Shown here: in pieces, positions 13,221-36,761 of the stretch | Numbering within the stretch: position 1 is the stretch's first letter | How the letters are laid out: the number at the start of each line of letters is the position of its first letter | Assembly (NCBI GenBank): GCA_032128875.1 | Contig: JAVLKG010000009.1 | Location: 64,001-128,000, forward strand | DNA from: Candidatus Melainabacteria bacterium 17Bon1m | Lineage (GTDB): Bacteria > Cyanobacteriota > Vampirovibrionia > Obscuribacterales > Obscuribacteraceae | Direction: 5' to 3' | Length of the DNA stretch: 64,000 nucleotides | Made by a program: the position numbers and the translations under genes | Notes under the pieces: generated by a model | Database searches by the model: none | What the model was told of the DNA's origin: nothing | The model's input: the letters and a program-made list of their open reading frames with translations, nothing else

Positions 13221-13442
13221 CGACAGTTTCCTCGGAGCGTCTGTGAAAATTTGAGCTTAACCAGGATACCGGTGGGATTTCTTTCGATATATGGGTTATT
13301 CCCTGAAGTTTCTGTTGCTATTTTAGTAAAAGAGAATCAGTCGGAAACCTTGCCTGTTGGCGCTAGTCATTCTAATTGCAGCCTGACGGTGTGCCAAACT
13401 GGAACTGTCTAATTAAGCAGATCCACTCGCGAGGAAGTTTTC

Positions 13443-13970
13443 GTGAAAACCAGGAAAGCTCTCGCACTGTTTACCATCGGGCATTCGACGCGCTCAGTTG
13501 CCGAGTTCGTCGAGTTGCTGAAATTAAACGAAATAGAGCTGTTAGTCGACGTTCGCACTGTGCCGAAGTCGCGAACCAACCCGCAATTCAACAAAGACAC
13601 CTTTGGCGATGATCTCGAAAAGGCAGGAATCGAATATTTGCATATGACAGATCTCGGCGGTTTGCGCCATGCTAAAAGAGACTCGAAGAACACTGTGTGG
13701 GAAAACGCTTCATTCCGGGGTTATGCAGACTACATGGAGACTGAGGAATTCCGCAATGCAGTGAAGGATTTATTGAAACTCGCTGAAAAGAAACGGCTGG
13801 CAATCATGTGTTCCGAAGCTGTTTGGTGGCGGTGCCATCGCTCGATGATCGCAGACGAATTGGTAGCCGAAGGTTTCGAAGTGCGCCACATCATGGGCGA
13901 CAAAAAGCCCGCTGAGCACAAGCTTCGCTCATTCGCTCACGTTGCGCGCGGGCATGTTTCCTATAGATGA
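13443..13970 (+). CDS. DUF488 family protein
   Basis: FTIGHSTR, LVDVRTVPKSR.NPQFN, LGGLR and CSEAVWWRCHRS motifs. Confidence 0.92.
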   Translation: MKTRKALALFTIGHSTRSVAEFVELLKLNEIELLVDVRTVPKSRTNPQFNKDTFGDDLEKAGIEYLHMTDLGGLRHAKRDSKNTVWENASFRGYADYMETEEFRNAVKDLLKLAEKKRLAIMCSEAVWWRCHRSMIADELVAEGFEVRHIMGDKKPAEHKLRSFAHVARGHVSYR

Positions 13971-13982
13971 TCTTCTAATCTC

Positions 13983-14900
13983 TCAGCGAATCTCTTCAAC
14001 GCTCTCTGCAATTCCGCGCATGTAGCTCTCAACTTTCTCCACATCCCACTTGCTGAACGGGGACTTCCGCATTGCGAGCAGGTCATTGATTTGGTGCTGA
14101 ATGTCCTGTCTAATGTTGTGCGCGATTTGCGTGGTGAGGTTGTAATCTTCTGCGTTTTCCGGTGCGTAGTCGAGCTTGAATGGCTTGCCTACACAAATAA
14201 GTAGTTTTACCGGCAGTGGGATAGCGTTGAATGGAAATGGCAGCAGTGGATAAAAAGGGGTCACAGGCCAATACGGCGCACCCATCAGGTCGGCAACAGG
14301 TTTTAAATTCGCAAGAAGGGGATAGATTTCATCGCCCCCGATGGTGATGACCGGTACAAGCGGAGAATTAGTTTCAATCGCAGCTCTCACGAAGCCTTGA
14401 TGAAACTCTTGAAGGCGATAGCGATCCTTAAATAACTTTCCCGTCCCTGCTTCCGCTTCGGGATAGAAGCAGACTAATTCTTCTGTTTCAAGTAATCTCT
14501 TCGAAAGTTCGTAGTCAGCGGCGACTCCTCCGAAGCCTCGAATGACTGTGCCCAATACGGGCGACTTTCGAATGAATTCGTTGACCAAAAACCTAATTCT
14601 TCGAGGATCAGGATGATGATTGAGAATCCCGTCATAAAGCATCATTCCGTCTACAGGAAGGACGCCTGAATGATTGCCGAAGAGCACAGCGCGCCCTTCT
14701 GCAGGAATGTTTTCCAACCCAACCATTGTTACGCCGAACCACTTTTCATAGAGAAAGCGAAACAGCACTTCGCTCTGTTTGCACTTATTGAGGTCGAACC
14801 CGAAGCTGTCCTCGTCATCGCGATATCGGGCGAAAAACTTGTCGCGCGGAGTGACTTCGTTTTGAGTTTCGGGCTGTGAATTTTGTTCCGCTGCCTGCAT
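13983..14900 (-). CDS. Lysophospholipid acyltransferase family protein (PlsC/MGAT-like)
   Basis: GNHSGVLPVD catalytic block, FYPEAEAG block, GFVRAAI..PLVPV. Confidence 0.88.
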   Translation of the reverse strand: MQAAEQNSQPETQNEVTPRDKFFARYRDDEDSFGFDLNKCKQSEVLFRFLYEKWFGVTMVGLENIPAEGRAVLFGNHSGVLPVDGMMLYDGILNHHPDPRRIRFLVNEFIRKSPVLGTVIRGFGGVAADYELSKRLLETEELVCFYPEAEAGTGKLFKDRYRLQEFHQGFVRAAIETNSPLVPVITIGGDEIYPLLANLKPVADLMGAPYWPVTPFYPLLPFPFNAIPLPVKLLICVGKPFKLDYAPENAEDYNLTTQIAHNIRQDIQHQINDLLAMRKSPFSKWDVEKVESYMRGIAESVEEIR

Positions 14901-15048
14901 ATATCCTGATTTTACGATTGAATTTGGATTTCCGAAAAGGAAAAATAGTTGATTGAGCGATACCTATGGATTGGATAGGCTTCCTATTTGTTCCAAGTCT
15001 GGGCAATATTAATGAACCCGGCGCTCAAAAGCGTCAAATCGAAGTGGT

Positions 15049-16155
15049 CTAAGCGGCCAGCGGAAGGCGAACGGTGAAAGTTGTGCCTTTGCTTTCTTCT
15101 GCTTCGCAGGAGATTGTTCCTTTATGCGCTTCTATTATTTGCTGGCACAGATAAAGCCCCAGCCCTGTGCCTGAATTAGTAGCGCGCGTTATGCGGCTGC
15201 GCCAAAAACGTTGAAAGACGTAAGGGTGTTCTTCTTTTGGAATTCCCGGACCGCTGTCCGAAACCTGCAAAAGAACCTCATGCCTATCTTGTTTTTCCAG
15301 CTTTACCAGGATAGTGCCACCGTCAGGCACAAACTTGATTGCGTTTCCGATTAGATTGTCCAAGACGCGAGTGATTGAGCATTTGTCTGCGCGTACATGA
15401 ACTTCCTCATTGGAGAGTTCTGCACTTAATGTGATGCCTCGATCTTCGATTAGTGGAAGAAGTCCGCGCAAATGCTTTGCTGTAATTGCACGCATATCGA
15501 TGACTTCGAGACTGATGTCGTGTATTTCTTTTTCATTGCGGTAAACATCGAGGAAATTGCAAATCATCTCGAGCAGCACATCATTGCTGTTCTTCACTGC
15601 TCCAAGAATTTCTATCTGCTGATCGCTCAAGCTGCCGAGCTTTTGATTGACCAGTAATTCAAGTATGCGATTAGATCCAATGATCGGGTTTTTTAAATCA
15701 TGCGTGAGCGTAGCCATGAAGTCTTCTCGCTCCTCGTATGTTCGCAGGCGCTCGGACTCTGCCGTCTTCATCTTTAATCTGGCACGCGCGCGTGAAAGGG
15801 CGCGGCGGAGGACTGTCGGAGTGACTTCCTCTTTCAGTAAATACTCCTGCGCGCCGAGTTCAATCGCTTCTTCTACCTCATCAATCGCGGACAGAACAAC
15901 GATGGGAATTGCCGGCGCGCAATTCCTCACGGCGACTAAGGTATCCAGTCCATGACTGTCCGAAAGGGTGAGGTCGAGCAAAATAGCGTCGAAATCTTTT
16001 TCCGCAAGTTTTAGCAACCCGGAGGCTAATGAGGTAGCCACCACAGCATCTACAGGAATAGCGTTCAACATCGACTTTATCGCTAGAGCTTGCGCCCGTG
16101 AGTCTTCAATTAATAAAACCGAAGGTGCCGAGTTTTCCAATTCCTGTAGCGACAT
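15049..16155 (-). CDS. Hybrid response regulator / sensor histidine kinase (REC-HisKA-HATPase)
   Basis: REC motifs LLIEDS, LLDLTL and YLLK; H-box THDLKNP; NAIKF, DSGPGI and GTGLGL boxes; no TM segment. Confidence 0.93.
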   Translation of the reverse strand: MSLQELENSAPSVLLIEDSRAQALAIKSMLNAIPVDAVVATSLASGLLKLAEKDFDAILLDLTLSDSHGLDTLVAVRNCAPAIPIVVLSAIDEVEEAIELGAQEYLLKEEVTPTVLRRALSRARARLKMKTAESERLRTYEEREDFMATLTHDLKNPIIGSNRILELLVNQKLGSLSDQQIEILGAVKNSNDVLLEMICNFLDVYRNEKEIHDISLEVIDMRAITAKHLRGLLPLIEDRGITLSAELSNEEVHVRADKCSITRVLDNLIGNAIKFVPDGGTILVKLEKQDRHEVLLQVSDSGPGIPKEEHPYVFQRFWRSRITRATNSGTGLGLYLCQQIIEAHKGTISCEAEESKGTTFTVRLPLAA

Positions 16156-16419
16156 GGTTATACCAGGGGGGGAGGGTCAAAAGTCACCGGGTCGCCGCAA
16201 CTGTAAGAGCCCGCCAGTAAACGAAAGTTCCCACCAGGATACCTTAACTTTGGCTAGCGGGAAAATGTTAACGACTGGATACAGCCGCAGATTTGCGCAA
16301 GCACCTGATTTCTAGTGTGCTAACACTTTGAAAATTTTTTGCTCGTAGACGAATATTAGTCGTAACGAAAACGCCTCTTTCGCGATGAAAGTTTGTGCCC
16401 AATGAATTATTTCGTCCAG

Positions 16420-19400
16420 CTAAATGAGGATTGCCACAGCAAAAACGCCGTCGAATTCGTCCCTTTCGAATACAGTCAGTTGGAATTCTTGTCCTGTGAT
16501 TTTGCTTGGGGATAGAACAGATGCGACCCAACCGTCATTATTTCGTTGCATGCTCTGGACTGTCCATTTTGTAGGATTGCCACCAATGCCGGTGCCGCAT
16601 GCTTTTGCAGACGCTTCCTTTGCTGCCCAGATTCGTGTCAAAATCTGATTGCGGGCATCTGCTGTTACACCGCTCAGAAAGTGCTTCTCATCGTCATTTA
16701 GTATCAAGCGCTCGATGCCTTCTTCCCTCACGGAATAAGGTTCGTAATCGATACCAATACCAAAATTGGAAGCGTTGCCTTTTACAAATCGAGCAATACC
16801 AATCGCGTATCCGTCTTTGTGTGTAATCGAGACTTGCGTCGAAATGCCACGCATCTGCAAGTAATGAGATTGCACGCAAGGTGCGCCGTTTTGAGCGGGA
16901 AGAACATTCAATTCTAGCGGCGGCAATGATGCTCCGAATGTCGTTTGATAAAGTCTGCGCATAGCATCTTTGGCAGCAATTCTTCCGAGCAGCCATTCGC
17001 GTTTGCGTTCTCTTCGTGTAATGAAATCGCCCATGTATTGCTGTTCTACGCCAGTGAGGAAATAGTCGGACAACCAAGTTGCGACCGTTTCATCATCTGG
17101 GATATCGCCGTTTTTGATATATGCCACACCGATCTCGGATGCGATTTGGGCAGGCAGGGACGGTGGATTCAATGGCGCGGCAACGAGATTTTGCCCTGGT
17201 TCTCTGACGAAGTCTTTCAACGTTTGCGACAGAGCAATTCTGCGGCTTGATATTGATTCGAACTCAGCTATCAGTTGACCATCAAGGGTGGAAATTTCCA
17301 CATCTGCTTCTGTGCCTCTGTCACTTATAGAGCGCAGTTTTGCAAAAACGCGTACATCTCCTTGCACTTCTCCCAAAGGTTTGTAGAGAGTAAGAGACTG
17401 AACGTGGAAGGGCAACAGCGCAGTGCAATTCTCTTGATGCTCGTACAAGTGGAAGAGGACCAGTTGTGTGGAATTGTCCAGCAAAAGCGGGTCTGCAATG
17501 AAAGGCGGGTTCATTCTCGTTGCATATGGAATTGTTTGACCAAACCAATCTTCTGCAACTCTGGAAGAAACAATGCCGGTAATCTCGCGTTTTCCCACGG
17601 ATTCTATTCGCACAACCGATTGCATGCGCGGTCCGTGGAACATGTTTCCTTCTACATATAATTGTTTTTCTGAAATAATCGGCGGTCGCCCGTCAGCCGG
17701 CGCAGGGTTTTTGGACATACCTGATGAGCGTTCTCTTCCGAGCACAATTTGCGCTGTCATGTCTGCGGTGTCCAGGCGATGCTGCCCGCTGTAGTGTTCA
17801 CCGCCGCCAGCCAGACTCAACCACTCATCTTGCCTAACAACCTTCAAACCTGCCGTAGTGCCTTTTGCCTCGCGTTTTGCAAAAACCAGCAACCATACAC
17901 CTTCTTGTCCAACACGAATACGGCGCATGGCCCGAATGTTTTCCACCGCGGTGACAATCTGACCACCGCTCACGAGCGATGCCGCCTCGCACATCATCTC
18001 GATTGCCACGGTCAATGGCAGGAGGTGTACCCGTTCGTCCTCGCTTTGAGGATTGTTCAAACTAGGTCCCATGCCAAAGCGCACTGGGCCACCAATTGCA
18101 TGGTCCTTCAAATAGCGATGAGAATCCAAAGTAAGAGGTAACAGAATTTCGATTTCATCAGGCGCGCAATTGATTATGTATGACGACTCCATGAATGCCG
18201 GCAGCCGGGAGAACATGTGACTCGTCAATTGATACGACCCTGGCATCAATGGCGGCGTTGTTTCAAAACCCGCAGGCGCAGTCGGATTTTGATTGCTATC
18301 GGTCACATCGTGCACGTCGTATTCGATGAGATTGGGATCTTTGTGCTCTTTTGTCGTGAAGAACTGCGAAAAGATTTGCGCTTGCACCTGCATGATATTG
18401 GTGTGAAAACTTTCGAGCGTCTTTATGTAGTTGTCCATAACCGCATCAATCACGGCAAATGGATCTTCTTCCAGTGGCTGCGCCTGTACTTCGGCCGGCT
18501 GGTCTGCCTGCGGCATTTCGCCTGGGTACGGGAGGTCTGGCGTATTGATATCTTCTGTGCGCGAGCTTGCGAAATATTCATTGGCGCGACTCGTATCATG
18601 CTGAATCGAGGGCAGGTTGGGGCGCTCAGAAAGCTCGATTTCTGGGTATTTCAAGGACAGATGCATGCTCGTCGATTTTGCCGGTTTGCTGTCCGGATTC
18701 AAATCTATGAGCTCTGCACGACGCGAGAAGAGATAGTCGAGCGTCAGTGGTACGGCGTGACAATAGAGGCTTGCAAGCGTGCGGTTGAGCTGCGTGATGC
18801 CTGATTCATTCTGCAAGTTAGACGCGATAGCGACATATTCTCTGCCTTCCAAGACCTCGTCTATAACAGGCGTCATGCCGCCACGCGGCCCGACTTCGAC
18901 AAAGATGCGAGTGCCTTCGTCGTGCATCGCTCGGATGGTTTTTTTGAAGTGAATCGGGTGCGTGAAGAGTTCGGTAGTGATTTTGCGAATCGCTTCAGTG
19001 TCGTCAGGATACTTGTCGATAAGCGAGCATGCCCAAGTTGGAATTTTGGGTTTGGAAACAGTCACAGCCTTCACTGCATCGTCGCCGGCGCTGACTTTCC
19101 CTTCGACCAGAGGTGTGTGATAAGGAATGGCAATCGGTAAAGGCAGAACTTCGTAGCCTGCTTCTTGAATGGCTTTCTTGGCAGCGACGATAGCGTCTAC
19201 TGTTCCTGAGAGCAGCATTTGTTTCGGTGACAAGTCTGCGCCCAGATAGACTGTATGTGGCAATGATTTGATGATGGGCTCAATTTTGTCCCAGTCGCCT
19301 GTCACTTTGATAGAACGCAATTTTGCCAGCTCTGCGATTGGCACGGCATTGGCGACGCCTGTGCTGAGACGGTAGAAGACTGGCGCTGTCTCCAATACAT

Positions 19401-21660
19401 CGGCAGCTCCGTTAATGAGCAAGGCCGCAAATTCGCCTGTGCTTACGCCGACAATTGACGATGGTTCGACACCAAGATTTTTCAGCAGTTGATACATCGA
19501 CCATTCAGCAAGAAGCACCGTAACAACTGCGCTGTCCATGCTGGCAAGCAGCGCTGCCGTGACCTGCGGACCCGGGCGACCTGGCTTTGTGACGCCGAAC
19601 AATTTTGTGCTCGGCAATATTGAATGAAGCTCGCTGAATGGACGCGTTTGCTTGTCAGGATGCGAATAAGTCAACGACATCTGATCGATGTAGTCGAATG
19701 CCATGCGCACATCAGGGAAGTGCATGCACAAGTCTTTGAGCATGTTGGGATAGGCGGCGCCAAGCCCCGGCAGGACATAGGACAACTTGCCCTGGGTAAT
19801 GGTGTTTTTGCCGGTGAGGTAAATATTGTCGGTGACCTGACCGGTCGAATGGGCATGCAAATGACCTATCGCTGTGAGAAGCTCTTCTCGCAAGTCGCGT
19901 ACAGATTTTGCGACAATCGCCAGGCGATAGGGTTTTGCCTCGGCTTTTTTACTCAGGCTGTAAGCCAGGTCACGCAAGAATAGCGGTCTTTTCTCATTAG
20001 ACAGACGGCTGTCGATCAATTTGATTGTGTTTTGCACCTGAGAAATCAAATCGTCGTTGTTGTTGCCGCTGAAAACGACCAACTCAGTGTCCCACTCTTT
20101 GATCAGTGCAGGACGTTGGCTTTCGTCTTTGTCATCGTGTTCTTCGACGATGACGTGTGCGTTGACGCCCCCAAAACCGAAGGCGCTTACAGCAGCGCGA
20201 CGCGGTTCTACGGTGGTTTTTAAATCTGAATCTTCAACGCTCACACTGGGATGAACTTTCGGGTGAATCCAAGGGCGAGTCTGCGTGCTGATGTGGCAGG
20301 GGTGTTTCGTCCAATCGGTTGTTTTACTCTCAGACATGACATTGAGGGTCGGGGGCAAAACACGATGATAGAGCGAGAGTGCTGCTTTGATTAAGCCCGC
20401 CATGCCACTGGCTGCTTGGGTGTGCCCGATTTGAGATTTGACGGAACCAAGGGCGATCCAGCCAGCTTCTTTGCCGCTTTCTTTGCCTGTCTCTTTGCCT
20501 GCATTTTTACCGCCTTCGCCAGTCATTAGCTCGCCTGCGGCGCCGTAAGTCTCTCTTATCGCCTGCAATTCTGCTGAATCACCGGCGGGGGTGCCTGTGC
20601 CGTGTGCTTCAATCAAGCCGATTGTTTTGGGCGAAATCTGTGCATCTTCGAATGCACGTCGAATTGCCAGGCTTTCGCCTTCGTGCGATGGTGCCAGGAG
20701 ACTGGTTCCGTGTCCGTCGCTGGATGAGCCGACGCCGCGAATGATGGCGTAAATGCGATCGTTGTTTGCCAGAGCTTCTGAATAGCGTTTTAAAACAACG
20801 GCGCCGATACCTTCACCGAGTATGGTGCCATCGGCATTTTGATCGAAAGGGCGAATTTCTTGACTGGGCGATAGTGCTGTCAGCGCGCAGAACATCTGGT
20901 AAAAACACGCGAACGAATTGATGTGAATTCCACCGGCAAGCGCCACGTCGCAAGCGCCGGTGCGCAAGTCGCGCACTGCTGTTTCTACTGCAATGAGTGA
21001 CGAAGCGCAGGCCGCGTCGAGCAGTAAGTTTTTTCCTTTGAATCCCAGGCGTTGTGCAATTCGTCCAGCCAGCAAGTTTGGCATGACACCAGGTACGGTG
21101 TCTGAATTGGTGGGCGGCAGCGAGCCGTGAAGTAATTCTGCAAGATGGCGAATATCGTCGTGAGATATTTCCGGATGCAATTTTTTTACTAGCGACAACA
21201 TCTGATCAACAGTCTGACCCTGCTGGATCATTGTCATCGCGCCTTGTCCGGGGGCCGATGTTCTTCCGAGGATGACCTCGCCCTTTTCTAAAGCAGTCGG
21301 TAAATTCTCGTACCCTGCGTCCGCCATCGCTTCTACAGCGACGCGTAAAGCGAGAAACTGATCAGGGTCGGCGCCGTGAACAGCGCGTGGCATGACGCCA
21401 TATTTCAGAGGATCGAAGTCGGCCAGTTCGGTGACAAAACCACCGCGCACGCAATAGATTTTCTTGAAGTCCGATCCGGCAGGATTTTGATATCTGATCG
21501 TCTCCCACTCTTGCTCGTTGGGCTCCCTCAGGCAGTCGCGACCGGCAAGAATATTGCCAAAGAAAGGCGCCAAACCCGGCGCCATCGGAAATAAGCAGGA
21601 CATGCCGACGATTGCGATTGGTTCCGTCTGCTTATGAGTATCGTTTTTTGTCTCAGGCAT
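16420..21660 (-). CDS. PUFA-synthase-like type I PKS subunit B: KS-AT-DH-PPTase
   Basis: KS motifs DAACASS, EAHGTGT and KSQIGHT; AT GVSTGE and PYHTP; DH LKDHAIG and DPLLLD; C-terminal Sfp-type PPTase (WLLGRIAAK, SITH, GIDYE, WAAKEA..KA.GTG). No ACP motif seen. Confidence 0.92.
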   Translation of the reverse strand: MPETKNDTHKQTEPIAIVGMSCLFPMAPGLAPFFGNILAGRDCLREPNEQEWETIRYQNPAGSDFKKIYCVRGGFVTELADFDPLKYGVMPRAVHGADPDQFLALRVAVEAMADAGYENLPTALEKGEVILGRTSAPGQGAMTMIQQGQTVDQMLSLVKKLHPEISHDDIRHLAELLHGSLPPTNSDTVPGVMPNLLAGRIAQRLGFKGKNLLLDAACASSLIAVETAVRDLRTGACDVALAGGIHINSFACFYQMFCALTALSPSQEIRPFDQNADGTILGEGIGAVVLKRYSEALANNDRIYAIIRGVGSSSDGHGTSLLAPSHEGESLAIRRAFEDAQISPKTIGLIEAHGTGTPAGDSAELQAIRETYGAAGELMTGEGGKNAGKETGKESGKEAGWIALGSVKSQIGHTQAASGMAGLIKAALSLYHRVLPPTLNVMSESKTTDWTKHPCHISTQTRPWIHPKVHPSVSVEDSDLKTTVEPRRAAVSAFGFGGVNAHVIVEEHDDKDESQRPALIKEWDTELVVFSGNNNDDLISQVQNTIKLIDSRLSNEKRPLFLRDLAYSLSKKAEAKPYRLAIVAKSVRDLREELLTAIGHLHAHSTGQVTDNIYLTGKNTITQGKLSYVLPGLGAAYPNMLKDLCMHFPDVRMAFDYIDQMSLTYSHPDKQTRPFSELHSILPSTKLFGVTKPGRPGPQVTAALLASMDSAVVTVLLAEWSMYQLLKNLGVEPSSIVGVSTGEFAALLINGAADVLETAPVFYRLSTGVANAVPIAELAKLRSIKVTGDWDKIEPIIKSLPHTVYLGADLSPKQMLLSGTVDAIVAAKKAIQEAGYEVLPLPIAIPYHTPLVEGKVSAGDDAVKAVTVSKPKIPTWACSLIDKYPDDTEAIRKITTELFTHPIHFKKTIRAMHDEGTRIFVEVGPRGGMTPVIDEVLEGREYVAIASNLQNESGITQLNRTLASLYCHAVPLTLDYLFSRRAELIDLNPDSKPAKSTSMHLSLKYPEIELSERPNLPSIQHDTSRANEYFASSRTEDINTPDLPYPGEMPQADQPAEVQAQPLEEDPFAVIDAVMDNYIKTLESFHTNIMQVQAQIFSQFFTTKEHKDPNLIEYDVHDVTDSNQNPTAPAGFETTPPLMPGSYQLTSHMFSRLPAFMESSYIINCAPDEIEILLPLTLDSHRYLKDHAIGGPVRFGMGPSLNNPQSEDERVHLLPLTVAIEMMCEAASLVSGGQIVTAVENIRAMRRIRVGQEGVWLLVFAKREAKGTTAGLKVVRQDEWLSLAGGGEHYSGQHRLDTADMTAQIVLGRERSSGMSKNPAPADGRPPIISEKQLYVEGNMFHGPRMQSVVRIESVGKREITGIVSSRVAEDWFGQTIPYATRMNPPFIADPLLLDNSTQLVLFHLYEHQENCTALLPFHVQSLTLYKPLGEVQGDVRVFAKLRSISDRGTEADVEISTLDGQLIAEFESISSRRIALSQTLKDFVREPGQNLVAAPLNPPSLPAQIASEIGVAYIKNGDIPDDETVATWLSDYFLTGVEQQYMGDFITRRERKREWLLGRIAAKDAMRRLYQTTFGASLPPLELNVLPAQNGAPCVQSHYLQMRGISTQVSITHKDGYAIGIARFVKGNASNFGIGIDYEPYSVREEGIERLILNDDEKHFLSGVTADARNQILTRIWAAKEASAKACGTGIGGNPTKWTVQSMQRNNDGWVASVLSPSKITGQEFQLTVFERDEFDGVFAVAILI

Positions 21661-21694
21661 TTTTCGCTCCAGGTACTACCTGGTACGCAAGCGC

Positions 21695-21744
21695 GTAAGG
21701 GCGATGCCATACATCGCGCTGGCGACGCATGGCGTCGCCCCTAC
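21695..21744. repeat. Paired REP-like palindromes between the two PKS genes
   Basis: GTAAGGGCGATGCCATACATCGCGCT followed by GGCGACGCATGGCGTCGCCCCTAC. Confidence 0.7.
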
Positions 21745-21752
21745 AGGTGAAC

Positions 21753-27700: not shown

Positions 27701-30700
27701 CATGCAGCCACGGGCGCACTTCGCTATTAATATAGAACGGGCTGTTTTCGAAGTCGCAGCTCGGGTTTGGAACAGTGACGCCGTTTGTCGGTGGCAAAAC
27801 TTTGTGGTGCAAAGCTTTAGCAACCTTGATCATGGAAGCCAATCCGGCGGCCGCTTTTGTGTGACCGATCATTGTCTTCACGGAGCCGACTGCGCAATTG
27901 CGTTTTTCGGCGCCGGAGCGCTCGAACACTTGTTTTAACGCTTCAATCTCGGCCCTGTCTCCGGCTACAGTACCAGTACCGTGGGCTTCGACCAGACCGA
28001 CTGTGGAGGGGTTGACTCCGGCATCTTCGTAGGCGCGATTGAGAGCAAGCATTTGACCTTCCGGTCTTGGTGCGGTCAAGCTGAGATCGCGACCGTCGCT
28101 GGAGCCGCCCACGCCTTTGATGAGAGCATAGATTCTGTCTCCATCACGCTCCGCGTCTTCAAGACGTTTTAGCACGAGCATGGCAACGCCTTCGCTGATG
28201 ACGATACCATCGGCGTTGGCGTCGAATGTGCGGCATCTTCCTTGTTTGGAGAAAGCATGTGTCTTGCTGAAGCTCAAGAAGTCGCCTGGTTGATTGTGCG
28301 TATCAACGGCGGTGAGGAAGACTACATCGCTGGTTCCGGAGCGCAATTCTTGCACTGAAGTGTAGAGCGCGGCGAGCGAAGAAGCGCATGCAGCGTCGAT
28401 AGAGAAGTTGACTCCACCCAGGTCGAAGCGGTTAGCAACACGACCGGCGGCGACGTTGCCGAGATATCCTGCGAACGAATCTTCGGTCCATTCGGGCAAG
28501 ATGTCGGCGATTTGATTCTTCGCTTTTTCATCGAGGTGAGCGAGTTTCCAGCCCAACATCGAGCGCAGTGACATCAGCGCTGTCACTGGACCGTGACCGG
28601 CATTGGCGAGAATTACAGATGTTTTCTTTCGGCCGAAGGCGCGGTTTTTGTAACCGGCATCTTCGAGCGCGCGGTCTGTGATCTCCAAAAGCATAAGTTG
28701 CATTGGATCGATCGAATTCAAACTGCTTGGCGGAATGCCGTACTTCGTAGGATCGAAAGTAATTGGTTGGAGGAAGCCGCCCCATTTCGAGACAATTCTG
28801 TCGCGAGCAAGCGGATTTTCGTCGTAGTAGTTGCGCCAATCCCATTGCTCGATGGGCACTTCTTCGATGGCGTCTACCTTGTTGAGGATGTTATTCCAAT
28901 ATTCGTTAAGGTCTTTTGCCTTGGGGAACATGCAAGACATGCCGACAATGGCGATATTGTCCCAACCGTCGCGGCGTGGTCTCGGGTTTTCTCCGACCGC
29001 TACATGAACTGATTTTTCTTCTGTCGAACCAGAAACAGCTGCAAAACCTTGAGTTGATTCGGCATCAGCAGTCACAGTTGCTTGTTTCAAGATTTCCAGG
29101 CCGCCTTTCGAAACAGACTGGTGCAATTCTTCAATCGACAAAACGCGCTCATGCATCGAGGCGACTTGCCCGATCATGTACATGCCGTCTTGCCATTGCT
29201 CGTCTTTGGAAACTTCAACCAATTTTTTGCTGGACGCAATTTCTTTGTTTTGCTCTTCTGAGTCCGCAACTTCTTTAGGGCCGGATTCAGCAGTAGATTC
29301 ATTTTGAATTTCTGTGAGAAGCAACTGGCGAGTCACTGTTTTTTCGCTCGGACGCGTTACGCCTTTGCTTGCGATACGCAGTCTGCCGAGGTTCATCAGC
29401 TCTAGTTCTTCGCGGACTTCGTCTTTTGTTTTATTCGCTAAAACCAGCTCCACTCGTTTGTCATCAAAAATACGCTTGTAAGGCGAGTTGATGCATCGGA
29501 TCGCGTGTCCGGGGCCAGTCTCCAACAAAACAGTTTCGTTGCAGGCAAGCGCAGCTTCCTGGAATTTTTCGACGATGGCACCGCTCTCGACTGCTTCTTT
29601 TGTAAAAAGATACGCAGTGCCGATGAGAACTCCGACTTTCATGCCGCGCTCGGTGAGCGGGGCCGTCATTGCTGCGACCATTGCAGCGGAAAGTCCATCG
29701 TGAATGCCGCCGGCCATAAGAATATGCAGCTTGGCGATTTCAGCTTTGGGCAATTGAACATTGGAGAGAATGTCCACCATCTGTTCCCAAAGAACGAAGC
29801 TAGAACGCGGACCAACGTGGCCGCCGCACTCTCTGCCTTCGAAGATGAAGCGGCGAGCGCCCATCTCGATGAATGAGGAGAGCAGAATTGGAGACGGAAC
29901 GTGCAAGTAAGTAGCGATGCCCGTATCTTCGAGCGACTTCGCTTGATCCGGTCTGCCGCCGGCAATAAGAGCGAACGGCGGTTTATGCCTGTTGATGACG
30001 GCAAATTGCTCTTGTCTCAACTCTTGCGGAACGAAGCCCAAAACCCCGACACCCCAGGGTTTGTCTGCGAGCAATTCTTTGGTTTTTGCAACAAGCACTT
30101 CTGCTTCGTCGCCGCGCATGAGCGCTAAGGCGAGGAAAGGAAGTCCGCCACCCTCGGCGACTTTGAGTGCGAATTCCGCGGTGTCGCTGACACGGGTCAT
30201 GGCACCTTGGACAATCGGATACTGAGTTTTATGTGACTCGGCAAGACCACCGTTTGGCTTGAATGCTTCTTGCTCAGCGGCGAGAGCACTCAGTCTGGCT
30301 GCGGATTCTTTGATAGCTTCGATGATACCGGCGGTCGAAACATATTTTTCTGCAAGACCTTTCGCCAGAGTGATGTCCTGACCAACTGCCAGAATGATGT
30401 CTTCGCGCTTGAGTTCAGCTGCGTTTTCATCACGCTTTTGACCTGGCGCAGGCAAGTATTTGCTCAAGTCGCAAAGCGAGGTGAGCGTCGAATGGTCATC
30501 GTTGATTGGGTGACCCTGACGAGCGAAAAATCTGATTTTCTTGCCGCCTTCTGCGGGCATGCTGGAGATCTCGGTACCATCCATGGTGGCAATGCGTTGT
30601 TTGGTCTCGGTGGACAATGCTGACTCGCGTGAGAGCAGCAATTGAGAATCGAGGACTACGCCACTGGCGCCGGCTGCGTAGCAAGCAGCTGCCGAGTAGA

Positions 30701-31307
30701 GACCGATGCCGCCCTGCACCCAGACCGGCAACTCCGTAACTCTTCTGATTTCCTGAAGCAGAATGTAGGCTGTCGTCTCGGAGGTTACGCCTCCCGATTC
30801 GCTGCCTTTTGCAATCAGCCCGTCAACCGGCAGCTCTTTGACTGCGAGTGTTTCTCTCAGGCTGGTTACTTCGACAAGAACTGTGGCGCCCAATGACTTT
30901 GCGTTGCCGACTGCTTGTGAGAGCGTTTCAAAAGACGTGGTCACGTCCGAGCTGATGATGACCAGCGGACGAGCATTGCTGCTGTTGGTTGCGTTGAGCG
31001 CAGCAGACGAGAGAATGCTCAGGGCTTCGTCGCTCTGTCTGGCACTGTATTTGATACCATAGCGCCCGCCCGGCTTGCGGGAGAGTTTTACAACGGCTGT
31101 CGAGACGGCTTGAGAAACTGCCGAATCGGAAAGCTCATGCAATTCGAGGTTGAGCAAACCGGCTTCGCCGGCCAGCTTGGCGGCAAATGCCACGCCATAA
31201 TGCGGTGAGGTCGGCGCCGAGCCAGCCTCTTCGGGTCTGCCGACAATTGCGTCTGTATCGCCGGGGAATGAAACCGCGGTGAGAGCAATGATTCCAAAAC
31301 TCGCCAT
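21753..31307 (-). CDS. PUFA-synthase-like iterative type I PKS subunit A: tandem FabK/nitronate-monooxygenase-type enoyl reductase domains-KS-AT-ACP-KR-DH
   Basis: ER-like GSESGGV and EGRECGGH; KS DAACASS, EAHGTGT and KTMIGHT; AT FPGQGSQ, GHSYG and AFHS; ACP LGIDSIKRVEI; KR TGGARGI, HGAG and GQSDY; DH LQDH....PVMP and DPILLD. ATG at 31307 with GAGG RBS is preferred over the TTG at 31424. Confidence 0.93.
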   Translation of the reverse strand: MASFGIIALTAVSFPGDTDAIVGRPEEAGSAPTSPHYGVAFAAKLAGEAGLLNLELHELSDSAVSQAVSTAVVKLSRKPGGRYGIKYSARQSDEALSILSSAALNATNSSNARPLVIISSDVTTSFETLSQAVGNAKSLGATVLVEVTSLRETLAVKELPVDGLIAKGSESGGVTSETTAYILLQEIRRVTELPVWVQGGIGLYSAAACYAAGASGVVLDSQLLLSRESALSTETKQRIATMDGTEISSMPAEGGKKIRFFARQGHPINDDHSTLTSLCDLSKYLPAPGQKRDENAAELKREDIILAVGQDITLAKGLAEKYVSTAGIIEAIKESAARLSALAAEQEAFKPNGGLAESHKTQYPIVQGAMTRVSDTAEFALKVAEGGGLPFLALALMRGDEAEVLVAKTKELLADKPWGVGVLGFVPQELRQEQFAVINRHKPPFALIAGGRPDQAKSLEDTGIATYLHVPSPILLSSFIEMGARRFIFEGRECGGHVGPRSSFVLWEQMVDILSNVQLPKAEIAKLHILMAGGIHDGLSAAMVAAMTAPLTERGMKVGVLIGTAYLFTKEAVESGAIVEKFQEAALACNETVLLETGPGHAIRCINSPYKRIFDDKRVELVLANKTKDEVREELELMNLGRLRIASKGVTRPSEKTVTRQLLLTEIQNESTAESGPKEVADSEEQNKEIASSKKLVEVSKDEQWQDGMYMIGQVASMHERVLSIEELHQSVSKGGLEILKQATVTADAESTQGFAAVSGSTEEKSVHVAVGENPRPRRDGWDNIAIVGMSCMFPKAKDLNEYWNNILNKVDAIEEVPIEQWDWRNYYDENPLARDRIVSKWGGFLQPITFDPTKYGIPPSSLNSIDPMQLMLLEITDRALEDAGYKNRAFGRKKTSVILANAGHGPVTALMSLRSMLGWKLAHLDEKAKNQIADILPEWTEDSFAGYLGNVAAGRVANRFDLGGVNFSIDAACASSLAALYTSVQELRSGTSDVVFLTAVDTHNQPGDFLSFSKTHAFSKQGRCRTFDANADGIVISEGVAMLVLKRLEDAERDGDRIYALIKGVGGSSDGRDLSLTAPRPEGQMLALNRAYEDAGVNPSTVGLVEAHGTGTVAGDRAEIEALKQVFERSGAEKRNCAVGSVKTMIGHTKAAAGLASMIKVAKALHHKVLPPTNGVTVPNPSCDFENSPFYINSEVRPWLHAPGTEQHQRRAGVSAFGFGGTNFHCVLEEYEPAVAIKEEPCKTEWPSELFTLSTAARMDMVKSVQQLLEQVKRAQADAASNTPGGFTRFAHKEFLKSQVKPSAKSAANTCRLTVVADGYNDLIEKLKRAQSDLLSPQKTEFKDPRGIFFKEKTEESPPGENSQSSNQSTKKIAFLFPGQGSQQINMLSDLSVAFPTVRKTFEQANEALQGVLPRSLKSYIFPPPAFTKEAEEKYQQELTDTRIAQPAVGAAGVAAFNLMSQLGIKADCAAGHSYGEYVALYAAGALNLKDLIRISELRGRLLTAKVENDGTMAAVTAERQEVEKLLGTMRGITLANINAPNQCVISGATDAVNDAVSQFKNQKIAARTIAVSQAFHSQYMEHAKQPLKEALQQIAFSAPKIPVYSNSDASTYTDSAEEFVNRLAEHIVKPVDFVSEIKRMHADGAYYFIEVGPGSVLTNLTSSILQDSPHLAVAIDRSGKNGITQLLNTLAQLWAHGVDFDARVLYEGRIEQLPALADQSTTGANGKPKLLYSIDSANITRYGVAPKPSTLAPSSAAPAPTASISAAGSINTAAQGGSAPALKPSQTAQTQSAGQPQARPAAQPPVSQPQTHTTSQSGQLNQTQAPNPFNGSGAKPVNPAAKESATRMTASTPPIPPTNQAPRAPQAPAAYNAPQGYPQPQAMPRPAANGNMDQVMVQFQQTMLEMTNSFLRTQQQVMSAYLATKAGVVPPQQFAQPQFQQPYAPQQYVQPQFGQPIAPPQYGQPQFAQQQFAQQPYTQAQYTEYVQPAVQAQYAQPEYTQGNGHVAPQILETAPLTIESNGNGNNGHYGHNGHNGHNGNNGHIAHNNSHSELPVAAVTADAVATAAPVNGSASPVEAAAPVETISNEKLVEELLEIVSQRTGYPPEMLDPELDLEADLGIDSIKRVEILNSFRKILPEAKQRELEGGLEQLAGTKTLKGIIDWINSEATGDTGTETSVPAAKSDANVNGAAIMAELAEVAGTNGSNGAHTAGLNGNGSNGSISSNGANGNGNGAGHNLDIIHATAGIIETGNGSNGHGNGNGNGHGAVEKAPVLVAAAATQTAQTAFSTRKESASGHNIQRATVEVSELAAAVLQPTKVPAGSIDLIIADEGDAWQEVGKSLTARGEKCVVIRHVANTKDGLKINNGACELDATSFDAVKSVLESVRKSHGKVARIINLQPLNKADVAITGSTPPAATMTLLNFAKAAYADLNDPAHKGIATITSASKLGGAFGSNSAGLNIETSTSPDRIWGAGISGFMKCLAKEWPIVRAKAIDFEESMTGSQIASIVIREMDAQEEFEANDGGDSNTAVAANKRVEIGYVNNGTTRIGLDVKITNIDSDSDTEHRQQQITIDSSTVIVITGGARGITAEIALDLAEKFQPQLVLLGRTPEPEAEPDYTAGLTSMRDIKAAIMSHLKDKGEQVSIAIVEQQYQKLIRDREIRDNLQAMRAAGSKVEYLPVDVRNESALEEAIDLINAEFGKIDGIIHGAGVIEDAFVKEKQQASFERVFTTKINSAKTLSKLAAQPDLKFFFLFSSVVGRTGNAGQSDYVSANETLNKLAVWLNKKSNARVASLMWGPWNAGMAQPELESLFAKYGWAMIAPAAGRKAFVDDLLYGRKDEAELVIVAQLPVSKGIPTDKMVRLSDAFTRQIDDASYEFESVLSPDVDLYLQDHTFDSVPVMPMAMALEMMAEAAQSVCPDAKMTGVNRLEIPAGIVFDSASKTLTVSARKVETVGQTTTVETTVITGNKRQHFKTSFELSSLPANGNGVAHRLSGLINIPAFVPSTATLAGIGQDIKSISPLPTRQIVYKDFMFHGPRFQGITSITALGEEGIVGELKASRPQECLSRSTGSNEWTIDPILLDSAMQLAGVWARQFLDITVLPTGFKKLHIGDRDLLLQDSYFARVFITPGTTARELTCDVAVYTKSGVLAFVIEGLGGIGSKSLNRLANQSASAAIPK

Positions 31308-31434
31308 GTACGAAGTGCCTCGGCAGAAGTTGGACGGATGGGTGCAATCTCGTCCCTTAGAAACACGCGCCACTGGAGAAGACGTTTCTCTTTCGGGCGG
31401 GGGTTGACCCTCAAAAACCTGCAAAAGCCAATCA

Positions 31435-31468
31435 CAGACTAGGCCAGACTAGGTTATAGAGAAGTATA
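31435..31468 (-). promoter_or_regulatory. Candidate PKS promoter with direct-repeat operator
   Basis: Perfect 9-bp direct repeat CAGACTAGG (31435-31443, 31445-31453) next to minus-strand TATAAC and TATACT hexamers. Confidence 0.35.
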
Positions 31469-31557
31469 TAAGGGCGGGAAAGGTTCGCCATTGGACAGGT
31501 TTTAACAACTCTCTTGTTACGAACTTATTGCATATGCAATAAGCAGCAAGAATGCCG

Positions 31558-32799
31558 CTAAACGACTACTGTTTCGGTCGGACTCTTGAGCTCGTACCTC
31601 ACACCGCGCCATTTGATACGGTTTGTAAGGACTGAGTAAAGAGTGACAAAGGGCAAAACCAGGTGGGCCAGTGGTATGGCCATGACGCTGCGCAGGAGCG
31701 TTTTGTCGAATGCCGCCTGCAGCTCCTTTTCGTCGTCCGTTGCCGGGGTCGGCAGGTTGGCCAGAAGGACGCGTTTCCAAAGCCCCTGGGCTTTTACGAG
31801 GAAAAACAATTCGACTGGTATGAGTGAAAGCCCCGCCATAAGCGACAGAAGCCATTCATTGTTGCCTGAGGCGATATATGCGAAAAGCGAGAAGAGCACG
31901 GCTCCGAGCCAGAAGGAAAGCAAAATTGCGCGATAGATTGCTCTCAGCCAGAGTTCGCGGTAGTAAACCTTAGTTAATATGAGCTGTCGATTAGTCCACT
32001 CGACAATCTCTTCTAAAGAGCCGTCGCCGTGGCTGGCAACGAGGCATTGCGGGACGAAGCGCACTTGCAGCCCCAGCGCTTTGACACTGGTCGTTAAGGA
32101 GAGATCATCATCGGCTGCGCGGTCCCAGCTTTCGGCGACTCGCGCCTGCTTGAAAGTGTCACGTTTGATAGCCATCGCCCCGCCCCAGGCAAAGGCATAT
32201 TTCTCGCTGCCCATCTCCCAGGCCGTGACGCGGTTCCACATGGAGCGCAGCACGGAGGGCAAATCGCCTTTGAATGGTATGTAAAAACGATATCCAGTTG
32301 TTGCACCCACACCGGGTTGCGACAGGGGGGCGACCAGATAGCGCAGCATATTGTTGCGGGCAATAACGTCCGAATCCACGAATACGATTGCTTCTGTGCG
32401 ATCGCTGATGACCTGAAGTGCTGCCAGCTGGTTATTGATTTTCTGTCCGCGTTGGCTATTGACGCCGGCTACGACGATTTTTGTCTCGACTAAGTCGATG
32501 GTCTTACGTATCTCTTCTATCGCCCCGTAAGCCGGGTCGTCAGCCGAAGCGACCGTGAAGATCACTTCAAACTGCGCCTTTCCATCTTTCACATAGTCCT
32601 GGTCGAGCAGTTTGCGCAGGTTGTCTTTGAAGCCCGGATCAAGTCCTTTGCACGGCAGAATCACCGATATAGGCGGCAGGTAGTCGGCCGGCGGCTTGTC
32701 GATTTCTTTCAGGACATAGCTGAAAAGCTGATTGAAAGCCTTTGTCTGGACAACGAGCGCGACAACGGTGATAAGGCAAAGGATGACGACTAAGATCAT
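31558..32799 (-). CDS. GT2 glycosyltransferase, ceramide glucosyltransferase/HpnI-like (GT21-type)
   Basis: N-terminal TM, SVILPCKGLD, KINN, FVDSD, WGGAMA, ADDDLSL, WTNRQ and C-terminal TMs ending I.WRG..Y. Confidence 0.88.
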   Translation of the reverse strand: MILVVILCLITVVALVVQTKAFNQLFSYVLKEIDKPPADYLPPISVILPCKGLDPGFKDNLRKLLDQDYVKDGKAQFEVIFTVASADDPAYGAIEEIRKTIDLVETKIVVAGVNSQRGQKINNQLAALQVISDRTEAIVFVDSDVIARNNMLRYLVAPLSQPGVGATTGYRFYIPFKGDLPSVLRSMWNRVTAWEMGSEKYAFAWGGAMAIKRDTFKQARVAESWDRAADDDLSLTTSVKALGLQVRFVPQCLVASHGDGSLEEIVEWTNRQLILTKVYYRELWLRAIYRAILLSFWLGAVLFSLFAYIASGNNEWLLSLMAGLSLIPVELFFLVKAQGLWKRVLLANLPTPATDDEKELQAAFDKTLLRSVMAIPLAHLVLPFVTLYSVLTNRIKWRGVRYELKSPTETVVV

Positions 32800-32822
32800 G
32801 ATGCTGGACTAGACCGGTCTTT

Positions 32823-32847
32823 GTGGGGACGACGCAAGGCGTCGCCC
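32823..32847. repeat. REP-like palindrome
   Basis: GTGGGGACGACGCAAGGCGTCGCCC in the divergent GT/GH3 gap. Confidence 0.65.
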
Positions 32848-32933
32848 GATTTGATCATCCAGGTAATGCGGCCCATCACCTGTTTTAAATAACCGAGCAA
32901 GTATAGTGCTAGACTTGCCCTGCTTTCCAGCCG

Positions 32934-34625
32934 GTGGCAGTCATGTTTCGTCCACTTTTGTATAAAACGTTCTACACGCTCGGCAAGCGGGAAGTCGCAA
33001 GATTTGACCGCGACTCTCAAGCTGTCGATGCAACCCAAAGCCGCCACCTGCTTGATATTATCCAGCGCAATGCGGCAAGCGCTTTCGGCAAGAAGCACGG
33101 TTTCAGCAGCATTCAGTCGGTCAGTGACTTTCAAAATGCAGTGGCAATTAATGATTATGATTCGCTAAGCGAATACGTCAATCGCGCCGCAGCAGGAGAG
33201 AAGAGTCAGCTCACAGTCGAAGATCCTTTCATGTTTGCGACGACCAGCGGTACCGCAGGCGAGCGCAAAATGATTCCCGTCACGAGATCCTACATAAAGG
33301 AATTTCGCCGTGCGTCTGTGGTTTCGGGTTTCAATCTACTAAAGAGCCATCCGAATCTTACTAAGGGAATTGCTCTGTCGGTTTTTTCCCCGGCAGAAGA
33401 AGGACGTACCGAGGGAGGCATTCCTTACGGCGCCATTTCCGGCCGCCTATATATGGAAGAGCCAAAACTAATCAAACGATTCATTTCGCCGATCCCCTAC
33501 GAAGTGTTTATCATCAAACATTATGAAAGCCGCTACTACGCGCTTTTGCGTCTGGCTTTGGCCTTGCCGGTGACGGTTATATATACACTCAATCCCAGTA
33601 CGATAGTCATGCTGGGCAAGCGATTGAAAATCTATGGCGAGCAACTTGTGCGTGATATCGCAGATGGTGCTATCAATCCGCCGCAGGCATTGCCGCATCA
33701 AGTTATGGAAGCCATCAAACCGTTTCTCAAGCCTAATCCCAAGCGTGCGGCCGAACTGGCAAAACTCCTGGAGCAAGACAAGTTTGACGCACAGAGTATT
33801 TGGCCAGATCTGTCATTGATATCGTGCTGGACCAAGGCCGCGGCATCGTTTTACCTACAGGACCTGCCGGCATACTTTGGTTCGACTCCCGTAGCTGACA
33901 TTACATATGGTGCCAGCGAAGGAAGAGGAACCGTCAATCTGGGCGAGGGGCGGCAGGCGCTTTCCATTCGTTCTCACTTTTTCGAATTCGTCGCAGTCGA
34001 CGATTGGGAAGCCGGCAATAAGAAAGCTCTGCTGTGCCACGAGCTGGAAGTCGGGCGCGAGTACTACATTCTCTTCACCACGTCGGGTGGACTCTATCGC
34101 TATCACATCAACGACATCGTCAAAGTGGTCGGCTGGTACAACCGCACCCCATTAATCGAGTTTCTCCATAAAGGCGGCAATATTTCTTCGTTTACCGGGG
34201 AGAAGCTTACCGAATCGCAAGTGACCGAAGCTATGCTCGCGGCTCAAAAGGAGCTGAGCTTCAGGGCGCGTTTCTTCACTCTCATCCCTGTTTTTCGTCC
34301 AGAGCCTCATTACGAGCTTTATTTGGAGTTCGATGGTCCGGCCGTATCTGACGAAACGGCACTGGCGAAGGCTTTTGACCGCCATTTGAGTCGCCTCAAT
34401 ATCGAATACGAGGCGAAAAGAGAATCCCATCGACTGACTGACATTAAGGTAGTCAGGCTTCCGGCCGAATCATATGAGCGCCTGCGCAAAGAACTGGTCG
34501 GTCAAGGAGTGCCCGATGCCCAGATCAAAGTTAGCCACTTGAACCCGAAGGACCAGATCCGGCAAATGATTCAGGGGTTTGAAGAACTCGGCTCAACGGC
34601 TGTAAGCCCCATGGGCTCACATTAA
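32934..34625 (+). CDS. GH3 family acyl-acid amido synthetase (ANL adenylating superfamily)
   Basis: TTSGTAG..K.IP, YGASEG, TTSGGLYRY.INDIV and GEKLTE motifs. Start is GTG at 32934 or ATG at 32943. Confidence 0.92.
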   Translation: MAVMFRPLLYKTFYTLGKREVARFDRDSQAVDATQSRHLLDIIQRNAASAFGKKHGFSSIQSVSDFQNAVAINDYDSLSEYVNRAAAGEKSQLTVEDPFMFATTSGTAGERKMIPVTRSYIKEFRRASVVSGFNLLKSHPNLTKGIALSVFSPAEEGRTEGGIPYGAISGRLYMEEPKLIKRFISPIPYEVFIIKHYESRYYALLRLALALPVTVIYTLNPSTIVMLGKRLKIYGEQLVRDIADGAINPPQALPHQVMEAIKPFLKPNPKRAAELAKLLEQDKFDAQSIWPDLSLISCWTKAAASFYLQDLPAYFGSTPVADITYGASEGRGTVNLGEGRQALSIRSHFFEFVAVDDWEAGNKKALLCHELEVGREYYILFTTSGGLYRYHINDIVKVVGWYNRTPLIEFLHKGGNISSFTGEKLTESQVTEAMLAAQKELSFRARFFTLIPVFRPEPHYELYLEFDGPAVSDETALAKAFDRHLSRLNIEYEAKRESHRLTDIKVVRLPAESYERLRKELVGQGVPDAQIKVSHLNPKDQIRQMIQGFEELGSTAVSPMGSH

Positions 34626-36638: not shown

Positions 36639-36644
36639 CGCAGC

Positions 36645-36754
36645 GTGTGGTCGCATTGCATGCGACCAAAAGTATTCATCGGTCGACGCATGGCGTCGAG
36701 CCTACACTAAAAGCGCAGTTCCACCGAAAAGGGCGTGTGCAACACGCTCCCACG
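36645..36754. repeat. Cluster of three REP-like palindromes between convergent genes
   Basis: GTGTGGTCGCATTGCATGCGACC, GGTCGACGCATGGCGTCGAGCCTAC and GGGCGTGTGCAACACGCTCCCACG. Confidence 0.75.
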
Positions 36755-36761
36755 ATCTTTA

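Follow-up and report, generated by a model that had tools for sequence, protein, structure and literature searches.

The stretch of DNA analysed here (the window) comprises 64,000 nucleotides of contig JAVLKG010000009.1 (positions 64,001 to 128,000) of Candidatus Melainabacteria bacterium 17Bon1m, a member of the Obscuribacterales whose genome (G000) is 93% complete, and it carries a candidate lipid pathway made up of a two-gene polyketide synthase (PKS), a GH3-family amide synthetase and a membrane glycosyltransferase (GT). A first-pass annotation, made from the letters alone, had placed the GT and both PKS genes on the minus strand, and the GH3 gene divergent from the GT across 134 bp; the coordinates agree with this, and the catalytic motifs are intact. 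The core features, in window positions, are:

21753..31424 from a TTG (21753..31307 from the probable ATG), minus strand: PKS-A, an ArsA/pfaDA-like iterative synthase (Pfam, motifs, ketosynthase tree, N-termini of homologues).
16420..21660, minus strand: PKS-B, ketosynthase-acyltransferase-dehydratase-phosphopantetheinyl transferase (KS-AT-DH-PPTase) (Pfam, alignment of PKS-B proteins).
18811..19803, minus strand: the AT domain of PKS-B (AT-B), PfaB-like, with a proposed role in chain release or long-chain transfer (FabD alignments, PKS-B alignment).
31558..32799, minus strand: a GT21/HpnI-like membrane glycosyltransferase (Pfam, motifs, hydrophobic segments).
32800..32933, no strand: the 134-bp gap between the divergent GT and GH3 genes (arrangement conserved in relatives).
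32934..34625, plus strand: a GH3 acyl-acid amido synthetase of a PKS-linked clade (Pfam, motifs, tree, structure model).

We read these genes as directing the synthesis of a glycolipid in which an amide holds the chain made by the PKS, a reading to which we assign a probability of about 0.55, and a promoter common to the GT and GH3 genes may lie within the gap between them.

The gene set was followed through 85 genomes of the Obscuribacterales, each at least 80% complete, with GH3 (E<=1e-135), the enoylreductase (ER)-KS part of PKS-A and the GT21 as queries, which matched 67, 72 and 68 genomes, respectively. According to a hand count from coordinates in the 72 PKS-A carriers, GH3, GT21 and PKS-A follow in this order on one contig in 53 (counting G021, whose GH3 is split in two frames), GH3 directly precedes PKS-A with the GT21 relocated in five (G017, G041-G044), and in 12 the members lie on separate contigs or were not found in fragmented assemblies; the remaining two are taken up below. 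GH3 adjoins PKS-A in all 60 genomes that have both on one contig, and stays beside it when PKS-B is reduced to AT-PPTase. A GT4-family glycosyltransferase, absent from the first-pass account, recurrently adjoins the cluster and is the divergent neighbour of GT21 where the latter has relocated. It is present as a single copy in 61 of the 85 genomes, every one a PKS-A carrier, and was not found in the 13 non-carriers, the two genomes without GT21 and nine further carriers; by hand count, 29 of the 61 copies lie in or beside the cluster, 5 beside a relocated GT21, and 27 are unlinked or on another contig, as in G000 (C4:604379-605485). All 13 genomes that lack PKS-A also lack the PKS-linked GH3, GT21 and GT4. 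In five of these, picked for high completeness, all six GH3-family genes are another paralogue, AT-B finds weak matches only (E>=2.8e-12, ~20% identity), and the proline dehydrogenase (ProDH) that neighbours GH3 in the window is retained in every case, and since the tested genomes keep both the paralogous GH3 and ProDH, the loss of the PKS-linked genes appears selective. The linkage of GH3 and PKS is far beyond a chance neighbourhood, and GH3, PKS-A and AT-PPTase, usually with GT21 and GT4, form a real order-wide unit. The prospect, raised in the first-pass annotation, that GH3 and GT orthologues would prove unlinked to the PKS in relatives was not borne out, as they are linked across the order and absent together.

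A unit of this kind could also consist of co-regulated neighbours that make separate lipids, with the PKS feeding general lipid metabolism and GH3 and the GTs using other acceptors. GT21 stands apart from the PKS in five genomes, GT4 is frequently unlinked as counted above, and local order is partly conserved regardless, with ProDH and a pyruvate dehydrogenase-lipA block nearby in several genera. We consider this explanation distinctly unlikely, given that ProDH survives in the tested PKS-less genomes whereas the PKS-linked GH3, GT21 and GT4 are gone, and that GH3 is never parted from PKS-A on a common contig.

PKS-A has the domain order pseudoER-ER-KS-AT-ACP-KR-DH (ACP, acyl carrier protein; KR, ketoreductase), from Pfam matches to NMO/ER, KS, AT, ACP, KR and DH. 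With residues numbered from the TTG at 31424, the first ER half is a pseudo-ER with GGV and no GGH, the second carries GGH (536), the KS triad is intact (Cys1013 and both His motifs), the AT is malonyl-type (GHSYG, Arg1540, AFH), there is a single ACP (Ser2164), and the KR tyrosine and the DH His and Asp are present. These domains make up a complete reductive cycle, and because homologues open with M[AS]SFGIIALT, the start codon is probably the ATG at 31307. A long low-complexity linker rich in Gln, Pro, Asn and Gly runs from AT to ACP (residues ~1760-2120, window ~25000-26200), and a short conserved helix-like segment of it is also present in a standalone linker-ACP encoded on another contig of G000 (C2:99326-100087; L132), which is 61% identical over 80 aa to the ACP of PKS-A. 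The earlier statement that no standalone ACP is present holds for the scanned window proteins (open reading frames (ORFs) below 100 aa were outside the scan, and a small ACP among them could escape detection) and not for the genome, given this related protein. In G082 and G088, where the KS-B domain of PKS-B is dead, orphan ACP-type genes are paired with a standalone intact KS-B (related loci L144, L146, L147), and in G082 this pair adjoins plsX-fabH-fabD. Genes of type II fatty-acid synthesis, identified by N-termini and BLAST, lie elsewhere in G000 (plsX-fabH-fabD and a fabG...fabF block), which marks the PKS pair as a secondary lipid synthase.

The PKS pair is of a type already known yet uncharacterised; fused pfaDA plus pfaBC-PPTase pairs are so described in PMC13291983 and PMC3098273. 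PKS-A passes the PfaA subfamily cut-off (1159.9 versus 1010.1). The PUFA-like label of the first-pass annotation needs qualification as to the KS: in a FastTree phylogeny (SH-like supports, as for the GH3 tree below), KS-A joins ArsA-type synthases of Beijerinckia and Methylosinus with a support of 99, apart from PfaA-type and Hgl-type KSs, and the KS-A and KS-B sequences of the Obscuribacterales each form one clade with a support of 100. The Beijerinckia cluster (Type P; PMC3098273) consists of pseudoER-ER-KS-AT-ACP-KR plus DH-PPTase, and PKS-A shows the defining Type P (ars) combination of an ER-KS-AT-ACP-KR protein with an ArsA-type KS; the product of Azotobacter ArsA is C23-C25 acids (PMC4824345). 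Unlike ArsA/ArsD, PKS-A has its own DH, PKS-B adds a KS and an AT without the usual Arg, and the neighbours are GH3 and GT21; the type III PKS that flanks Type P genes was found neither in the window nor, by inspection without a family scan, at the loci of relatives. The Renibacterium type (Type M of Shulse and Allen), compared by its description, likewise has two genes, an ER before PfaA and a PPTase on the second gene, and the pair shows the same fused pfaDA followed by a gene ending in PPTase, but, unlike that description, no chain-length factor (CLF) domain was detected in PKS-A or PKS-B. Canonical Pfa synthases (Types A/B), defined by tandem ACPs, KS-CLF, a FabA-type DH pair and a separate PfaD, differ from this pair, which has a single ACP, PKS-type DHs and a fused ER, with no CLF or FabA domain found.

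PKS-B reads KS-AT-DH-PPTase by Pfam. KS-B and DH-B are intact in the window and lost in several genera, leaving AT and PPTase as the conserved core. In an alignment of 21 PKS-B proteins, picked partly for being variable, 8 have a complete KS-B triad, 12 have lost it and in 1 a contig end cuts it off, 7 are without DH-B, AT-B keeps its Ser and His in all 21 and has Arg at the FabD position in none, and the PPTase motifs are kept in 20 (the remaining protein is cut at a contig end); the G013 and G021 genes show frameshifts and may contain sequence errors. The smallest form of the unit is GH3, PKS-A and (dead KS)-AT-PPTase. PKS-B stands where ars-type clusters have type III PKS genes and ArsD, and the type III PKSs beside ArsA offer a model in which KS-B would add unreduced extensions and DH-B would cyclise them to an alkyl-resorcylic acid, with GH3 conjugating the aromatic acid, much as some plant GH3s accept benzoates. 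This scheme is highly improbable in our view: the KS-B triad and DH-B are lost in the 12 and 7 proteins just mentioned while GH3 stays, and no second KS was found at E<=1e-60 in G016 or G063. The loss of KS-B and DH-B in some genomes thus disfavours an aromatic product. Against the Protein Data Bank, DH-B gave weak PKS dehydratase matches only and no product-template match.

AT-B of the window has PGLG in place of PGQG, a GVSTG motif (Ser740) with no preceding His, His848, and Leu765 where FabD has the malonyl Arg. The features listed for PfaB-like terminal ATs in PMC12895367 (a Ser-His dyad, no His before the Ser, no malonyl Arg, an altered oxyanion motif) occur in 21 of 21 PKS-B proteins, and PfaB and PUFA subunit B ATs likewise often sit behind a dead KS; unlike PfaB, AT-B is fused to DH and PPTase. 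It scores 28.5 bits against the PfaB family model TIGR02816 (cut-off 144.3), and because similarity at the family level is weak, the likeness may be convergence. The AT-like domain of Thraustochytrium subunit B is a thioesterase that releases free fatty acids (PMC8003026). By analogy, hydrolase and acyltransferase activities are both possible for AT-B, and a PfaB-like AT as the likely unloading domain would explain why no thioesterase is seen. The first-pass statement that thioesterase and terminal reductase are missing stands as far as Pfam finds neither domain in the 32 window proteins of at least 167 aa; the thioesterase's task, though, is probably done by AT-B.

GH3 matches the N, M and C domains above the Pfam cut-offs and carries the three nucleotide-binding motifs (TTSGT, YGASE, GLYRYHIND), and its structure model (pLDDT 92.5) superposes on JAR1 with a TM score of 0.82, a GH3 fold. 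Relatives at 75-98% identity are labelled Melainabacteria, Obscuribacterales or Cyanobacteria, and only three 50%-identity representatives score above 500 bits. In the GH3 tree, 16 PKS-linked sequences, two extra copies and two database representatives share one branch with a support of 100, which excludes the second GH3 of the same genome. Second copies of the PKS-linked type that lie away from the cluster (G004:C192, G005:C174, G064:C3, G067:C58, G070:C238, G071:C2) are 49-54% identical. The second GH3 of G000 (C2:534332-541672; L133) belongs to a conserved operon, together with genes for an alpha/beta hydrolase, an epimerase-like protein of the enolase family and several extended short-chain dehydrogenases/reductases (SDRs), also seen at L020-L025 and L158-L163 and kept in PKS-less genomes; Phormidium and a verrucomicrobium have a comparable epimerase-GH3 pair. 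The fusion of a fatty-acid hydroxylase domain to GH3 in 13 of 19 long relatives ties the wider subfamily to lipids. These fusions form a recurring family (P0350, P0355, P0358, P0360, P0365, P0378, P0389, P0392, P0393, P0396, P0397, P0337, P0386). Within the PKS-linked clade, the helix that follows motif I carries invariant Ser128 and Ser131 at positions usually taken by aromatic or bulky residues in relatives, and this pattern would fit a roomier acyl pocket. The Lys by which plant GH3s bind acidic amino acids aligns with Ala154, which is therefore a weak argument against Asp or Glu as the amine.

OlsH, the lyso-ornithine lipid synthetase of Singulisphaera and the one characterised bacterial GH3 that our literature searches turned up, has the same fold and three motifs. 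It N-acylates ornithine in an ATP-dependent manner with free C14-C18 acids, and requires a free fatty acid, possibly scarce in E. coli cells according to its authors (PMC12493201), which makes the earlier suggestion of a GH3 ligating fatty acids to amines plausible. The window GH3 scores 107.8 bits against the OlsH model NF052613 (cut-off 620) and is not its orthologue; the OlsH neighbours OlsG and OlsI are absent from the window locus, where GH3 is instead partnered with a megasynthase and GTs, and PMC12493201 mentions neither a polyketide nor a glycosyltransferase. GH3 enzymes form an acyl-adenylate intermediate and share a related fold with PaaK-type ligases, and one related PKS pair (L060) has an AMP-binding gene downstream of it, all of which would suit a route with no amide, in which GH3 is an upstream acyl-AMP ligase for a starter acid and AT-B a starter transacylase, yielding an extended glycosylated acid. 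The characterised GH3s surveyed form amino-acid conjugates, we know of no GH3 that loads an ACP, and we regard this route as very unlikely. A further point in its favour is that PfaB puts palmitoyl groups onto ACP in vitro (PMC12895367).

GT21 has an N-terminal and three C-terminal hydrophobic segments, the motifs DSD, DDD and WTNRQ, and a GT21/GT2 match in Pfam. Ceramide glucosyltransferase and HpnI carry (Q/R)xxRW where the window protein has WTNRQ. The first-pass annotation had labelled it ceramide-glucosyltransferase-like, and ceramide glucosyltransferase is the closest solved structure by sequence (E 3e-8), although the similarity is weak, as it is to HpnI (105.3 against the model TIGR03472, cut-off 310). 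Although GT21 shares its family with both of these enzymes, no hopanoid or ceramide pathway was found in G000: neither squalene-hopene cyclase nor serine palmitoyltransferase (SPT) was found in the 93%-complete genome, the latter extending beyond the window what the first-pass annotation had noted within it. The single strong oxoamine-synthase match is a glycine C-acetyltransferase (521 versus 460 bits) and falls below all three SPT cut-offs; a second match is weak (42.6 bits), and its identity was taken no further by family scan. We therefore rejected an HpnI-type hopanoid role and a true ceramide product for G000; GT21 is left with no known acceptor there, and its acceptor is unlikely to be a hopanoid or a true ceramide. 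Given that GT21 is retained in G016 and G063, where KS-B is absent, the likelier source of the hydroxyl it uses is the amine, or else a final PKS-A cycle left incomplete. An MFS transporter accompanies the cluster in some genera.

In the amide glycolipid pathway that we favour, the PPTase domain of PKS-B would prime the ACP of PKS-A, which would iteratively build a long, mostly saturated acyl chain from malonyl-CoA (of a length suggested by ArsA), with KS-B and DH-B as optional modifiers. The Arg-less AT-B would take the chain off the ACP as a free acid, as PfaB-type ATs suggest, and GH3, judging by its fold and motifs, would adenylate the released acid and join it to an amino acid or amine. 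GT21 would then add a first sugar to a hydroxyl of the head-group or chain and GT4 a second, giving a phosphorus-free envelope lipid that is glycosylceramide-like in shape and has no sphingoid base. As to the ceramide-like glycolipid of the first-pass annotation, nothing indicates a sphingoid base, and the likelier product is an N-acyl amino acid or amine that bears sugar. A bolder version, in which the PfaB-like AT passes a very-long-chain acid to the dedicated GH3, which amidates a hydroxy-amine, and GT21 and GT4 build a disaccharide head on what would be a major glycosylceramide look-alike, we advance tentatively, as somewhat less than an even bet. If that bolder version is right, this would be the first GH3 to act as the terminal enzyme of a fatty-acid/polyketide megasynthase, and the lipid would be a biomarker candidate for a lineage that is sister to cyanobacteria and does not photosynthesise. 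That 72 of the 85 genomes carry PKS-A suggests that the lipid is basic to the envelope of this lineage. The favoured pathway gives a candidate function to two poorly understood groups, the widespread and uncharacterised two-gene ER-KS-AT-ACP-KR(-DH)/KS-AT-DH-PPTase synthases and the bacterial GH3s, and the natural deletions mark GH3, PKS-A and AT-PPTase as a minimal unit of a size that suits heterologous expression.

Several observations weigh against this pathway. GT21 was not found in two of the 72 carriers, in which GH3 precedes PKS-A (G102, G103). The 13 negative genomes amount to three entire genera and, besides these, five individual genomes that are 85-90% complete, and a single deletion or assembly gap can take out neighbouring genes together. 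Among the best database matches listed for AT-B (best 77), 2 of 66 have Arg at the FabD position. The PKS pair of other lineages, with an AT that is also apparently Arg-less, comes without GH3, so GH3 is not required for the synthase to be useful. OlsH, finally, acts poorly on 3-hydroxypalmitate (PMC12493201), and bacterial PfaB functions in vitro as an acyltransferase for long chains and is argued not to be a hydrolase (PMC12895367). The last point, together with the teaming of OlsH with a separate O-acyltransferase (PMC12493201) and the fact that no other conserved acyltransferase accompanies the cluster, speaks for a different wiring, like that of OlsH/OlsI, in which GH3 would attach an ordinary fatty acid to the nitrogen of an amino acid and AT-B would move the long PKS chain from the ACP onto a hydroxyl of the lyso-lipid or another lipid, with no free-acid step. 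O-acylation would, on the other hand, consume the hydroxyl that GT21 requires, and the invariant Ser128 and Ser131 would fit a GH3 with room for a larger acyl group, and we judge this wiring unlikely. Its product would still be an amide glycolipid, and that these genes make one, by either the favoured or the OlsH-like route, we think quite probable.

Two further systems resemble the favoured pathway in outline. In Pseudomonas fluorescens MYb115, the iterative PKS of PfSgaAB passes a long chain to a nitrogen-installing partner to give a membrane-type sphingolipid (PMC12134224); there SgaB, an SPT that depends on PLP, makes a C-C bond, whereas the partner here is an amide ligase and no SPT was found. 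Unlike the window cluster, the heterocyst glycolipid (Hgl) pathway features a terminal reductase. That pathway likewise pairs a secondary lipid synthase with a glycosyltransferase, in the same phylum (PMC3098273), but KS-A falls outside the clade with the Nostoc PfaA-type KS and an amide ligase is present here. Our searches of mostly open-access papers turned up neither a description of this cluster nor a GH3 that works for such a synthase, and nothing on the lipid chemistry of the Obscuribacterales; a paper on rubiginones (PMC8487521) has a single mention of a GH3 annotation, two aminolipid reviews (PMC12971839, PMC11631085) do not mention polyketides in term look-ups, and for a glycosylated N-acyl tyrosine known from a cyanobacterium another route has been proposed (PMC11959600).

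To look outside the order, metagenomes were scanned with 35 distant PKS-B homologues as queries; 80 loci were kept from at least 600 pattern matches, and GH3, GT21 or GT4 was found in one (L100), which falls in the Obscuribacterales clade; this negative is limited, because both ends of the pair can be seen in only 17 loci, where the visible upstream sequence is 0-7.7 kb long. Pfam matches on 71 of 110 flanking ORFs revealed other tailoring sets, e.g. phosphodiesterase, hydrolase and SDR; hydrolase, GT1 and methyltransferase; or a sulfotransferase. Loci L051, L052, L056, L063, L065, L066, L074 and L077, and L085, L087, L090, L095 and L102, represent two recurring sets, one in which a type I phosphodiesterase is frequently joined by hydrolase and SDR or methyltransferase, and one of hydrolase and GT1, frequently with methyltransferase; these two are further undescribed lipid pathways. 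Only 2 of 200 other genomes of the phylum hold a PKS-A-like gene (E<=1e-150), with no GH3 and none of these GTs lying within ~39 kb in either; in limited scans, the GH3-synthase pairing was not found outside the Obscuribacterales. The PKS pair of two phylum genomes outside the class (L154-L157; G196, G132) is in reversed order in one of them, and its neighbours have N-termini that we take to resemble sulfotransferase, APS kinase and phosphodiesterase genes.

Two further genes follow PKS-B in the window:

15049..16155, minus strand: a receiver-histidine kinase, judged outside the conserved unit (Pfam, neighbourhoods in relatives).
13983..14900, minus strand: a PlsC-type acyltransferase, judged outside the conserved unit (positions of homologues in relatives).

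The acyltransferase does lie downstream, as first annotated, but is not adjacent to PKS-B, since the kinase gene intervenes, and we do not retain it as the pathway member it was taken for: its nearest homologues adjoin the PKS only in G000, G011 and G008, lie 13 kb off in G007 and more than 100 kb off on the same contig in G017 and G018. The kinase was likewise rejected, being beside PKS-B only in some genomes of the window's genus, as was ProDH (window 36762-37985), which is convergent on GH3 in several genera and in a second family and is kept in PKS-less genomes as noted above. A scan of 13000-22500 for promoters and terminators gave signals at chance level, a plasmid search returned no record covering 80% of PKS-B, and looking up clusters for 10 distant PKS-B matches yielded no names. 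In two RNA-labelled runs, which may derive from the source sample, the entire 20 kb lies on one contig at flat, DNA-like depth, which is uninformative for expression; short intergenic segments at 36644-36755 match several other contigs of the same runs and may be a dispersed repeat. The pyruvate dehydrogenase block (E3, E2, E1 beta, E1 alpha) with lipA at 4970-11359 may supply acetyl-CoA, and recurs near PKS-B in G013, G016, G021 and G063 and at a distance of less than 10 kb in G018. In G013, G016 and G021 this block is accompanied by three ORFs (1-4592) that are helical, apolipoprotein-like or unannotated. At the other side of the cluster, 43871-58690 holds an exosortase beside a VIT-domain protein, an ECF sigma factor and an ORF of 2860 aa that has no match in Pfam.

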